DNA of 64,000 nucleotides. Source: an uncultured virus (IMG/VR IMGVR_UViG_3300027902_000007). Taxonomy: Duplodnaviria; Heunggongvirae; Uroviricota; Caudoviricetes. Of this stretch, positions 34,237-44,026 are shown piece after piece. Location: the IMG/VR virus record IMGVR_UViG_3300027902_000007; one strand, given 5' to 3'. Position 1 is the stretch's first letter, and each line of letters begins with the position of its first letter. The notes beneath the pieces are model-generated. The model had not been told where the DNA came from. It saw only the letters and a list, made by a program, of their open reading frames with translations, and did not search any database. The translations under genes were made by a program, and so were the position numbers.

Positions 34237-34917
34237 TTATGTAGTAATGTCTTCTATTTCATCTAGTAACTTTGTGTGTTCGTCAATTATACCGAGCTTT
34301 CTTTTTGCTACAGTCTCACTAATTTTACTTTCTACATTGTCAAATTGAGCTATAAGAGATTTAAACAATTTATCAGCTTTAACTTTGTCAGGTGTGTTTT
34401 GTAAGCGTCTAATTTTGCTTTCTAGTTTTTGGAGCTCCCTACGACGTTGTACGAATTGTTTTTCGTATGATTCAATGTTCTCATCGACGATGACAGCGTT
34501 TGGATACCGTTTTGTCAATAGCCTGGTTGCCTCATCTCTGTTAGTCAACGTCGTAAGTCTTGACGACATCGACTCATCATTGACGGTCTCGCGGAAGTAA
34601 ATTTTACCAGCTGTCGGTTCAGCCAAAGTAACAGTGATGTAATGGCCATCATCAATAGAACCTGTAAATTTTTTATATAACCTACCTTGCGATTCATATT
34701 TATTTTTTAATTTAAGTTCGCCCGGCGTATACACCTCAAACATCCTCTCAACGAGTCGTCTTGACATAAACGGTGATTTGATTCGTGGTTTTGCGGTTAT
34801 TCGCAGCGGTGAATCGGGATGCAGTTCTAAGTACTTTTTTTGGTAATTGTACGACCGTTGATCCCACGAGATAGCCCGTTTCAAGAATTCCGATTGAATT
34901 GCGGCTAAATGTCTCAT
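34237..34917 (-). CDS. protein with shared IQxEF leader and W..Q..YL..HP motif
   Basis: MRHLAAIQSEFLKRAISWDQRSYNYQKKYLELHPDS. Confidence 0.65.
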   Translation of the reverse strand: MRHLAAIQSEFLKRAISWDQRSYNYQKKYLELHPDSPLRITAKPRIKSPFMSRRLVERMFEVYTPGELKLKNKYESQGRLYKKFTGSIDDGHYITVTLAEPTAGKIYFRETVNDESMSSRLTTLTNRDEATRLLTKRYPNAVIVDENIESYEKQFVQRRRELQKLESKIRRLQNTPDKVKADKLFKSLIAQFDNVESKISETVAKRKLGIIDEHTKLLDEIEDITT

Positions 34918-35196
34918 TTAGTGCCTTATGTCTCGGACAGTATAGAAAGTCGGTTGTAGGTTACGGCCTTTTGTAAATTTTATGCATTTTTTATCGCGCA
35001 GCCATTTTTTACCATGCGGCCGTAATCTAATCCCAAAGAGGTAACAGTTGCCGGAGTGGGATAAATGTCCGCAGGTTTGGTGGCACTCATTGTAGCCCGG
35101 GAGCTTATTATCACCGACCGTTACGGGTTGGACTGCGAATATTCTAGGGTCAGTGAGAGCTTTCTTTACAAATTCAGCTTGTATGCTACGTCTCAT
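34918..35196 (-). CDS. protein with shared IQxEF leader (start MRRSIQAEF)
   Basis: MRRSIQAEFVKKA; ATG overlaps the upstream TGA. Confidence 0.55.
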   Translation of the reverse strand: MRRSIQAEFVKKALTDPRIFAVQPVTVGDNKLPGYNECHQTCGHLSHSGNCYLFGIRLRPHGKKWLRDKKCIKFTKGRNLQPTFYTVRDIRH

Positions 35197-35525
35197 AGCC
35201 ACCTGTGACCTTTTGGTAGGCAGTTGACGTCCCAAGCGATGCCATTCTCCCGCATAGATCTAGCCACAGGCCCACCACGGCCTCTGGCAATGTCTTCTGG
35301 GGAGCTCACGGACTGGACGATGACACTGACACCGTCAAGGAGGATGTCGTCGCCTTCTTTTGGCGGGGTGACACCGACGGGCAACCTTAGTACATAATAC
35401 TCTCCACCATGTCCGTCTGTGGGAGTGAATTCGAGGTACGGCGAGTAATTAATACGAGGAGTGAAGCCGCAATTGTCGAGGTGGTGTCTTAAAAACTCTG
35501 ATTGGATGACAGCCAAGTGTTTCAT
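35193..35525 (-). CDS. protein with shared IQxEF leader
   Basis: MKHLAVIQSEFLRH. Confidence 0.6.
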   Translation of the reverse strand: MKHLAVIQSEFLRHHLDNCGFTPRINYSPYLEFTPTDGHGGEYYVLRLPVGVTPPKEGDDILLDGVSVIVQSVSSPEDIARGRGGPVARSMRENGIAWDVNCLPKGHRWL

Positions 35526-36232
35526 CTTAATTCTCTTGGGTCATCTTCTGGGTAACTCCTAACGGGCTCTCCGTCATCGCTAAGCAGACTAGCATCAATG
35601 TGCTTAGTAAGTAATTCCCTGAAATAGTCTTTGTCTTTTTCAATGATTTTTATTTCATCTTCTGAAAAATGAGAGCGAAGATTGTTGCTGATAACATTGA
35701 CATAGCATTCAGTGTCACCTGTGAAGTCCATGTCGTATTTGGCCTCGTTGCTATAAAAGTCCATCATGGTGTCAATTTCAGCATTGTCAAGCAAGTTTTT
35801 GATTGCTTTCTTATCATCATCTTCTGATTCCTGTTTTTGTTCTTGTTTCAGTTGGTCTTTTGGCGCATTGGCAGACAAAAATGATAATAGTTTGTTAAAC
35901 GTGGTTGTAGACTGTCCGCCGCCGATATTGACGACTATCCTGTCTGTATCAAGCCACTCTGCAATAGTAGCTAAGATATTGTTGCCCGCCGAAATAGTAT
36001 TGTATGGATACTTTGTCATATCCAAACCCATATTTTTGACAGCCGCCCTAAATTGATCCATCGAAGTAATTTTTTCTTGGGGTGCGGTTGTCTTTTGTCT
36101 AGGTTTTGCTGTAAGTCGTCGTTTCGATTTAGGATGCTCTTTTAGGTATCTCCTCTGTTCATCCTCAGACAGTTCATCCCAGTCGCGGGCCTGTTTTAGG
36201 AATTCCGATTGGATGGTCGCTAAGTGTTTCAC
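35522..36232 (-). CDS. protein with shared IQxEF leader (GTG start) and W..Q..YL..HP motif
   Basis: AAGGAG RBS then (M)KHLATIQSEFLKQARDWDELSEDEQRRYLKEHPKSKR. Confidence 0.65.
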   Translation of the reverse strand: MKHLATIQSEFLKQARDWDELSEDEQRRYLKEHPKSKRRLTAKPRQKTTAPQEKITSMDQFRAAVKNMGLDMTKYPYNTISAGNNILATIAEWLDTDRIVVNIGGGQSTTTFNKLLSFLSANAPKDQLKQEQKQESEDDDKKAIKNLLDNAEIDTMMDFYSNEAKYDMDFTGDTECYVNVISNNLRSHFSEDEIKIIEKDKDYFRELLTKHIDASLLSDDGEPVRSYPEDDPRELR

Positions 36233-38265
36233 GAGCTGCTCCTTTAAGTGTTGACGTCGTATAATAGAGCGCTTTATCAAAAAATTATTTTGATTTTTGT
36301 GTGAGAGGTAGCTGCTGCTTAATCTTATCTTTGTAGAAATGATTTTAAGTCGTTTAGTGTTTGTCGTCCTTTTCCATAAGGCAATGAGCTATAAAAAATA
36401 TCCAAAAGAAGAAAAAGACAAATGGCAGTACGTACTTTACGAACCAACTAAGGTTTGGTTTGACGTGGCCGTATGTACATACGTCTAACTCTTTGAGAAT
36501 CAATAACAGGAACCCAATAAAAAAATAGACGACGAGACCAAAAATTAAAAGATCGTGCAACATGTCAACCCCGTGGTAACGGTCGTCCTTGAGGTTTGAC
36601 TATTCTAATGCGGATCCAGTCTTTATTTTCCCCGGACGAGATGACCTGTGATATTTGGACGAAGCGTCTTTTGCTAATGACTATTTCAAACCGTTTATGC
36701 TCTCTGTTCGCACGCTGCTGCGCCCTGTCTATTGCCCTCAAGACTTCGTACTTGTATAATTTTGGAATTTTCATAGGTTCGTCTTAACCAGCTCTTTTCT
36801 TTGCTCTTTAGTCCTCTGCAATTCTTGTTCTATTTCTCTGATTTTAACATCAAGCCTTTGTATTTCTCTGGTGTGCACATTTTTTATCGCCTTGGGAAAG
36901 CTTTTGAGGCATTTGGCAAAAGCTTTTTCTACGGAATCCTCTACTTCCGTGACAACCTCGTGCAGGTCGTGGGAGAGCGTGACCCGATAGCCGTGACAGT
37001 GTGACTTGATACTAATGTCTCGAAACGTAAATCCCTTAACAAACTCCTGCATCTTCCACAGAATGTCCGAAGTTGGCACTGCATTGTCTCCGTCTGGGTC
37101 CCGTGGGTCGTCCATTAATGACATATTAGACTCCTTGGTGCTTTTTCTGTCTGTGCATCTGGTTTATGATTGCATATAAAAAGACAGCCGACAAGAATGG
37201 CAAGGACGACTAATAAAAATACGATTCGTCCAGGATCTCTTATTTCCTCGTCAGTAGCGTAAGCTTTATGAATCAATAAGTTCCGCAATTTTTCATGCAT
37301 TTTTCATGTCCTCTTGTTTAAATTTGCGCTGTAACGCCTTGAGTAGGGCCATGTCAGATCCTATGCTAAACCAGCAGCGGTCTATGAAAATCTTGATAGA
37401 GTCGTACTTGCTTACGGACGAGCCGAACATTGGATTTTTTACAACCTGGACACATTTTCCGTCAGGCATCTCGTATAGGTAGGACTTGCAGCCCATGTCG
37501 TGCCAGGCCTTGACGATGAGCTTGCCCGTCTTTTTACACTCCAGTAACGTGCTTTTCGTCTCTGATAGTTTTTTAGCTTCTTTTAGTTTTGAGTCGACCA
37601 GAGGTTTGAGTTCATTGATTTCCATTGTCAATCTCCTTTTTAACTGTTATTCTTTTCTTGAAGAAGAAGATGAATAAGTGGAATATCGTTTCTCTTACGA
37701 GTAGCAAGAACATAAATGATAGAAGTAAAAGTATAGTCACAGAGAAGAGAAATCCTACGTCAGTGAGTACAGGAGTGTAGTGATGCCAAATTCCTTTTTT
37801 GCAGCAGTAGATGGTCGCAGTGTGCAGTCCGAGACATGCCAATAATATGGGCACGGTGTAGATGACGGTAAGGAATGCGTGCAGTAAGCTTTTATCCAGT
37901 CTTTTCTCATAGGCACTGTCCATATTTTCTCCTATTTCAAGTGAATGCGTAAGATGGTTTCATCGTCACTTTTCATCTTTCCTCCACCGTGGTACTTCTA
38001 CTGTCTGAGCCACTACTTTATTGTCATTGTATAGAGTCGGTAAGGGTTTTGGACACGTGCACTGCGAGTGGTGTTGTTTGCATTTATCGCACCATTCAGA
38101 CAAGACGTGCGGCATTTTTTTCAGGCTTTCCAGTCTTTCTTTTAGGTCAGGACAGGTACATTTACTGAGATGATTTCCGCATTTCATGCACCACATATTT
38201 TCTTCCTTAATTTCATAGTTTATTAATCAAGTCGGACAGCATAGCGTTGTTGTCACGTAGAAAAA

Positions 38266-43585: not shown

Positions 43586-43595
43586 GCTCTCTCCT

Positions 43596-43847
43596 TTATT
43601 TGCGCGTTTCACGTCTCTGTTTCTTTTTATAAGCATCGTAATCTTCTTTAAGTTCTCGTCTATATTCCGCTTCGTCTTCTCTACGTTTTTGACCAGGTGA
43701 CCTTTCATCAAACCATTTTTCACCAGTGCGCCGTCTCTTACTATGCGGATGTCTTTTTAAATATGCTCTCTGTTGTACTGGTGATAAGTCAGTCCATTTT
43801 CTTGCAACTTTTAAAAATTCTGCCTGAATACTGGCTAAATATTCCAT
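43596..43847 (-). CDS. protein with shared IQxEF leader and W..Q..YL..HP motif
   Basis: MEYLASIQAEFLKVARKWTDLSPVQQRAYLKRHPHSKR. Confidence 0.65.
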   Translation of the reverse strand: MEYLASIQAEFLKVARKWTDLSPVQQRAYLKRHPHSKRRRTGEKWFDERSPGQKRREDEAEYRRELKEDYDAYKKKQRRETRK

Positions 43848-43855
43848 TTAACGCC

Positions 43856-44026
43856 TCACTTATTCGTTATACGATCGGGATAGTTTCCTCGTTCGGCTGC
43901 CACGTTACCGGGCCTGTCCTCACCAACAATCTGCGTCACTTTTTTCTCAGCTTCTTTAGAGGCGATGTCCTCCCATTTGCGGGCTTCTTTTAAGAACTCA
44001 GTCTGTATTTCTGCAATGTGATTCAT
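43856..44026 (-). CDS. 56-aa protein with shared IQxEF leader (absent from the ORF track)
   Basis: translated by hand: MNHIAEIQTEFLKEARKWEDIASKEAEKKVTQ...RITNK. Confidence 0.6.
   Translation of the reverse strand: MNHIAEIQTEFLKEARKWEDIASKEAEKKVTQIVGEDRPGNVAAERGNYPDRITNK

Follow-up and report, generated by a model that had tools for sequence, protein, structure and literature searches.

The leader and the eight window genes

The window studied here comprises bases 1-64,000 of a 136,551 bp virus contig (G000) from an uncultured virus (IMG/VR IMGVR_UViG_3300027902_000007). Eight of its open reading frames (ORFs), all on the minus strand and arranged in two tandem clusters, begin with the same leader of 15 residues, with the consensus MKHLAxIQxEF[LV]KxA. 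An earlier, sequence-only reading of this DNA had proposed that this peptide is a capsid-targeting sequence, possibly cleaved after its K-x-A end. All eight leaders were found where that reading had placed them, in a shortened form in the ORF starting at 35196. K-x-A is present at the end of six of them and absent from the ORFs starting at 35525 and 42603. The proteins had also been said to diverge after the leader. However, four of the eight (starts 34917, 36232, 43585 and 43847) share 28 more residues directly behind it, RxWxDLSxxxQxxYLxxHPKSKRRLTA, hereafter called the second module, and the ORF starting at 44026 has the first residues of this module. Thus, these four do not diverge immediately after the leader. 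The eight ORFs are listed below.

34237..34917 (-): 226 residues; leader 34873-34917, ending KRA; second module 34789-34872; body without Pfam family
34918..35196 (-): 92 residues; shortened 13-residue leader 35158-35196, ending KKA; Cys/His-rich body; ortholog in the related contig G001
35193..35525 (-): 110 residues; leader 35484-35525, without K-x-A and without second module
35522..36232 (-): 236 residues; leader 36188-36232, ending KQA; second module 36104-36187; acidic body
42175..42603 (-): 142-residue S-adenosylmethionine decarboxylase (PF02675); degenerate leader 42559-42603, ending KIT
42605..43585 (-): 326 residues, basic; leader 43541-43585, ending KEA; second module 43457-43540; orthologs in G001 and G002
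43596..43847 (-): 83 residues; leader 43803-43847, ending KVA; second module 43719-43802; short charged tail
43856..44026 (-): 56 residues; leader 43982-44026, ending KEA; then only the first residues of the second module

The 236-residue ORF is the first gene of a four-gene cluster and has a GTG start behind an aaggag ribosome-binding site. Searches with the body of the ORF starting at 43585 named no family. The four nearest homologs of the decarboxylase have other starts and lack the leader.

Occurrence and conservation

A genome-wide scan, suggested by the sequence-only reading, was run on all six-frame segments of the contig with a profile trained on the same matches. It returned 16 strong copies (at least 30 bits; next best 13.4), and three shuffles gave maxima of 19.6, 17.4 and 11.8 bits. 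Eight of the copies lie beyond the window, with starts near 68404, 70809, 73508, 94709, 95277, 96830, 120605 and 121488, and a weak 17th copy is found at 74115. Four related contigs, G001 to G004, carry 31, 12, 15 and 6 copies, respectively (64 in sum), and a further one, G005, gives 27 profile matches. Over the five contigs G000-G004, 80 copies score at least 17 bits, with a shuffle maximum of 11.3. A start codon lies within 3 codons of the leader in 76 of the 80 copies, and residues 13-15 read K/R-x-A in 63. In databases, a 45-residue profile retrieved 184 proteins, and 458 clusters at 50% identity. The leader is located within the first 3 residues in 111 of the 120 matches listed among the 184. 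Leader proteins P0036, P0062, P0088, P0099 and P0120 are labelled as belonging to a Nitrosarchaeum metagenome-assembled genome; they probably represent phage contigs binned there and therefore give no evidence on the host.

Residues 1-5, 7, 8, 10, 11, 13 and 15 are held across the 80 copies and the 458 clusters, and conservation stops at A15 or, where the second module follows, at the end of that module. Codon identity in pairs encoding the same residue is 0.59, against 0.555 expected from codon usage, and is 0.505 in G000 alone. Such near-background values indicate that selection acts on the peptide. AlphaFold predicts a helix at residues 2-14 (pLDDT 64-67) and another at residues 23-32 (pLDDT 85). 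The leader is an amphipathic peptide of helical periodicity, its hydrophobic moment being largest at 100 degrees. A DNA repeat or RNA element was rejected as an explanation, nucleotide identity between copies being no higher than the protein requires.

Neither leader nor second module has a sequence match in the PDB, a significant match in BFVD or a usable match in the Atlas. No description of this leader or of the phage G leader treated below was found in the literature searched, including the available sections of PMC13326640, PMC8570332 and PMC13282480; a mass spectrometry study of the phage G virion (Gonzalez et al. 2020), which lay outside this search, may bear on novelty and on packaging.

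The second module follows the leader in 51 of the 80 copies. In 202 retrieved proteins, 207 copies of it were counted, 193 of which stand behind a full leader. Seven of the remaining 14 are preceded by KxAxx (background 0.5%), some within longer proteins and some after degenerate leaders. Internal second modules retain KxA and not IQxEF. In G001, a sigma-70 family factor encoded directly upstream of the terminase gene (L050:15359-16630) bears the module behind a KIA site and is possibly packaged. A third common motif, F[RP][HN]PxTRNxVxFxSLP, is visible in several tagged proteins, including topoisomerase IB (G000 93396-94709 and 121488-122234; G001 209517, 179570 and 288399).

Cargo proteins

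The leader is shared by at least 16 unrelated proteins of the contig, including a predicted topoisomerase, a tRNA-end-repair enzyme and a peptidase. Pfam families were found in 6 of 17 tagged proteins: S-adenosylmethionine decarboxylase, M17 aminopeptidase, WGR, topoisomerase IB, CCA/poly(A) polymerase with HD, and DUF5662. In the relatives, 9 of 61 tagged proteins have a family. ADP-ribosyltransferase, FtsK and rhodanese are new, and M17, topoisomerase IB, WGR and CCA are found again. Most tagged cargo has no family.

After removal of leader and second module, 77 bodies fall into 54 clusters, and no two bodies of the contig match each other. The leader is not part of one fold shared by all its bearers, a possibility that the sequence-only reading had raised: homology does not extend through the proteins, the cargo bodies are unrelated and only the second module is common. 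Leaderless homologs of several cargos are encoded by another relative, G006. These, together with the leaderless kin of the decarboxylase, show that the tag is detachable. Tagged orthologs of M17, topoisomerase IB and the CCA enzyme retain it across genomes that are 53-60% identical. The leader is a real, modular and clade-wide feature, an N-terminal, swappable tag on unrelated proteins that is defined at the protein level.

At G000 73023-73850 (L001:9023-9850), a WGR protein with the leader, and with an aggagg site and ATG of its own, is joined in frame to a preceding DUF5661 domain. This arrangement may correspond to a read-through fusion or to a polyprotein.

Head genes in a relative

The contig encodes RecA and, in region 65789-72204, the host-type genes for carbonic anhydrase, acyl carrier protein, an RRM RNA-binding regulator and ribosomal L7/L12. 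Its best-covered relative, G001 (416 kb, estimated 77% complete), matches 78 of 264 G000 genes with a median identity of 52%. G001 has genes for terminase, portal, head maturation protease and capsid protein, and an acidic 608-residue protein is predicted to be its scaffold from position and composition. The G001 capsid is 48% identical to gp27 of Bacillus/Lysinibacillus phage G (NC_023719), the nearest cultured relative; Tunturi_5, Bxz1, Yoloswag and PaBG are more distant capsid kin. It matches phrog_2522, and the protease matches phrog_18299. The capsid does not fall in the class of T4-type head proteins (gp23 family). Thus, by the capsid kinship of G001, the uncultured virus is a phage G-type megaphage and not a T4 relative. 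Fold searches with a low-confidence model of the protease gave T4 gp21 and herpesvirus proteases as best matches, each individually weak, and do no more than agree with the PHROG label.

Two leader-tagged G001 genes follow sheath and tape measure in a run of genes on the same strand. The idea that the leader was copied from the scaffold was discarded: its best profile score there is -7.4, and no head protein scores above -2.9.

K-x-A in head proteins

K-x-A was ranked among 400 spaced residue pairs by observed against expected counts. In the scaffold, protease and portal of G001 taken together, it comes first of the 400 (46 against 20.2 expected, p 6e-7), and the reversed pair, A-x-K, shows no enrichment. 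When 449 G001 proteins are ranked by K-x-A, scaffold, protease and portal come 2nd, 4th and 5th. The first rank is held by a 649-residue protein (G001 L021:17800-19746) that has no family and is encoded far from the head module. Its 628-residue ortholog in G000 (102292-104178; L003:292-2178) is also rich in K-x-A (21 against 6.1), which ties the signature to G000. These two proteins are candidates for an inner-core protein, and the 628-residue one has no detectable kinship to phage G gp7. PxWLxxL-like N-terminal segments are seen in several K-x-A-rich proteins (G000 102292, G001 L050:12646-13152, phage G gp7 and gp11) and are perhaps another core-docking motif.

In eight aligned scaffolds of the leader-bearing clade, 13 K-x-A columns are conserved against 1 A-x-K column, several of them in divergent acidic linkers. 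In 7 of 8 protease sequences of this clade, KxAxxWxD stands near the N-terminus of the protease itself. K-x-A is also the first pair in phage G gp4-gp21 (53 against 25.7), in the first 1,205 residues of Bxz1 gp95 (17 against 6.9) and in Tunturi_5 gp332 (16 against 5.6); in four other Bxz1 proteins it is not. In the head-protein lists of G001, phage G, Bxz1 and Tunturi_5, the top rank is never taken by an x-x-E pair. A complex prediction that paired leader and second module with residues 1-240 of the G001 scaffold scored 0.01 and carries no weight either way.

In T4, core proteins are cut to fragments, and the propeptides of 10-20 residues that form the capsid-targeting sequences (CTS) are removed by the same protease, whereas SPN3US prohead cleavage occurs after A-x-E, as described in parts of PMC5694885 and PMC10052503. 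If the leader is a propeptide, its end is therefore expected in the scaffold, and K-x-A there matches this expectation.

Other lineages of the head family

In Yoloswag, the scaffold signature is SxS (27 against 10.6), second to DxD, and the sole second-module protein, encoded two genes from the protease, opens with a leader ending ISLS, so that leader end and scaffold signature vary together between lineages. The open frame of Yoloswag gp144 (L005:5962-6966) reaches 90 codons upstream of the annotated start, and the second module is found there. In PaBG, the scaffold signature is AxA, second to ExD. The capsid protein of PaBG loses 20% on maturation, according to a portion of PMC7412058, and this loss maps, as a loose fit, onto AxA sites at residues 72-79. 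A sister clade (G006, G007 and G014) was set apart in a capsid tree of 23 rows, with two near-duplicate loci left out. Its major capsid protein is 84% identical to that of G001, and its protease N-termini bear K-x-A.

Neither the 15-residue leader nor the second module was found in phage G. There, 25 of 627 ORFs open with starts of the type MKRLxKK[AS], an 8-residue basic peptide, against a mean of 0.7 in controls; this count covers the ORFs of the first 450 kb, uses a pattern drawn after seeing them and includes one match that looks spurious. The cargo comprises GNAT, ParB, SLOG and the ferritin-like gp346. Members are found for example at 81748, 178674, 245994, 401815 and 446709 of NC_023719. 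Several continue with xFHGTS/YHGTS, which we take to recall the ADP-ribosyltransferase fold, Pfam having given no match. A wider pattern, read together with Supplementary Table 1 of PMC12484599, assigns starts of this kind to six members of the “gp336 multigene family”. Among the tagged proteins, only gp346 is named as detected in particles in part of PMC12484599; as 55% of nucleic-acid genes were detected too, this is weak support. No mapped prohead cut site was found in the literature searched for the head family of phage G, Bxz1, Tunturi_5, Yoloswag and PaBG.

A C-terminal tail in the same contig

A C-terminal tail, [KRG]FDF[ILMV], occurs on 11 small ORFs of the contig. They are located in region 25678-54081 of the window (for example 39641-39988, 44903-45175 and 45681-46022) and at G000 64692-64889. 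The sequence-only reading was right that none of the eight leader ORFs carries this tail. It went on to propose two mutually exclusive address labels. This is not supported, since the expected overlap is 0.67 and the probability of zero overlap is 0.50. None of the 933 ORFs of G001-G004 has this tail, nor does any ORF called in phage G.

Comparison with known systems

In T4, the CTS of IPI-III and Alt is removed by gp21, as stated in part of PMC5694885. Like the T4 CTS, the leader is a short N-terminal peptide on unrelated proteins, the end motif of which is repeated in the scaffold, as shown in G001. An ADP-ribosyltransferase is among the cargo, here in a relative, which recalls Alt. In contrast with T4, there is no sequence likeness, the predicted cut follows Ala (K-x-A) and not Glu, although the leader holds an internal IQxE, and the head belongs to the phage G/Bxz1 type (phrog_2522). 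Moreover, 16 to 31 or more genes are tagged per contig, whole metabolic enzymes included. To our knowledge, the second, retained module has no counterpart in T4. Because cut motif and head type differ, the leader is placed outside the T4 CTS family.

In SPN3US and phiKZ, ejection proteins of giant phages are also processed by the prohead protease, and gp53 and gp54 have an identical 15-residue N-terminus; unlike the leader, their propeptides mostly exceed 100 residues and are cut after Glu, in another lineage (sections of PMC5694885 and PMC10052503). Phage G has the same type of head module, K-x-A as top pair in gp4-gp21 and an N-terminal leader ending K-x-[AS], but its leader is a different peptide. 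Weak structural matches place the protease in the fold family of the herpesvirus assemblin maturation proteases, which have alanine at P1, as predicted here. These cut after Ala and, as far as is known, process only scaffold and protease. We know of no cargo leader system in herpesviruses.

Discussion

We consider it likely, from the sequence comparisons, that the leader is a head-loading propeptide comparable to the T4 CTS, cut after the Ala of K-x-A, in a non-T4 lineage. The leader helix would bind an inner-core protein during prohead assembly. A protease of assemblin/gp21 fold would then cut after K-x-A, which would break up the scaffold and trim the cargo, and the trimmed cargo would remain with the packaged DNA. 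The most speculative step concerns about two thirds of the copies: there, the cut would lay bare a basic helix-loop module (RxW...HPKSKRRLTA) that may tether the cargo to DNA. Ejection of the cargo at infection would supply the phage with ready-made enzymes. Capsid targeting with cleavage, as put forward in the sequence-only reading, thus gains comparative support from K-x-A and appears probable, whereas the exclusivity of two labels finds no support and the second module had been overlooked.

Several observations weigh against this reading. No head genes were seen in G000, so that its link to the head runs through G001. The structure model of the protease is poor (pLDDT 47), with a best Z of 4.4, to T4 gp21. 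The scan of head proteins for K-x-A, positive for scaffold, protease and portal of G001 and for phage G, Bxz1 and Tunturi_5, is negative for the capsid: in G001, capsid, decoration protein, terminase and sheath show no enrichment, and the first two of these nulls count here. The K-x-A excess over the whole G001 proteome is mild (615 against 509). Among 21 head loci, the scaffold candidate has K-x-A in the top three in 13 and first in only 8. The likeness between protease N-terminus and leader is weak (hhalign E 7.6e-4, probability 25%) for a pair chosen post hoc. Cargo bodies contain 73 K-x-A against 87 expected (p 0.07; 35th of 196 pairs). An apparent avoidance, 80 against 104, was seen while the second module was counted as well and faded once the module was removed. 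No late promoter is apparent, since leader genes share no upstream motif and sigma-70 scans do not exceed shuffle levels. Finally, no copy of the leader was found in the sister clade (G006, G007 and G014), and a de novo search in G006 gave no strong substitute beyond a faint KIAxEIL-like start. Not every member of the family therefore has such a system.

Two further points against a cut after Ala bear directly on where the tag would be cut. Residues 13-15 lack K/R-x-A in 17 of the 80 copies, two of them in the window, and the best-kept positions are F11 (79/80) and E10 (77/80), both above K13 and A15, which leaves a cut after Glu open. The leader could then be a head-loading tag cut after Glu10, between the last two residues of IQxEF, as in T4, phiKZ and SPN3US, or remain uncut, with K-x-A incidental or specific to the scaffold. 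T4-type proteases do cut after Glu (parts of PMC5694885 and PMC10052503). Nevertheless, we hold this to be improbable: it is K-x-A and no x-x-E pair that tops the head lists of all four phages, the conservation ends at A15 or behind the second module, and internal second modules keep K-x-A while losing IQxEF.

A role unrelated to the virion, as an intracellular docking or degradation tag for one partner such as a replisome clamp, RNA polymerase or a protease adaptor, is also unlikely, if a little less so. Several cargos act on nucleic acids (topoisomerase IB, WGR, FtsK, CCA enzyme), the tagged genes are scattered outside the head module, and QxEF[LV] loosely resembles the pentapeptides that bind the beta clamp, which follow a QL[SD]LF-type pattern. 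However, this canonical pattern is found in none of the 80 leaders, the leader is predicted to be helical, and a peptidase, a decarboxylase and a rhodanese are tagged as well. Such a tag would also leave unexplained why the end of the leader is the scaffold signature in two lineages. Least credible to us is a mobile 5’ gene cassette, made of a ribosome-binding site and first codons, that was spread by recombination and has no sorting role. Tagged genes do cluster, 23 of 31 in G001 being less than 2 kb from another (random mean 8), and several are tiny or remnant-like (56 and 83 residues). Against this, codons are at background while residues are held over all copies and clusters, the DNA upstream of the leader genes has no common sequence, and M17, topoisomerase IB and CCA orthologs stay tagged across divergent genomes.

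A head-loading propeptide cut after Ala could also be one instance of a wider system, an extension that we offer tentatively and regard as rather doubtful. The phage G/Bxz1/Yoloswag supergroup might have a head-cargo system independent of T4, combining an Ala-cutting protease of lineage-specific P3 with lineage-specific leaders. In the megaphage clade, a two-part address, made of a clipped docking helix and a retained basic DNA tether, might pre-load at least 30 proteins per virion type, some as K-x-A-processed polyproteins.

The general idea of a head-targeting tag is already known from T4, and a tag that directs proteins into a capsid of this size would be a useful tool. A head-loading propeptide cut after Ala predicts an Ala-specific maturation protease for the whole head family, including phage G, Bxz1, Tunturi_5, Yoloswag and PaBG. 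The leader would provide a list, readable from sequence, of what a phage of 400-500 kb may inject before gene expression, whole enzymes included. If the two-part address is real as well, it would pre-load topoisomerase IB, the CCA enzyme, leucine aminopeptidase, FtsK, an ADP-ribosyltransferase and a sigma factor, and the injected proteome of uncultured megaphages would become accessible in the same way.

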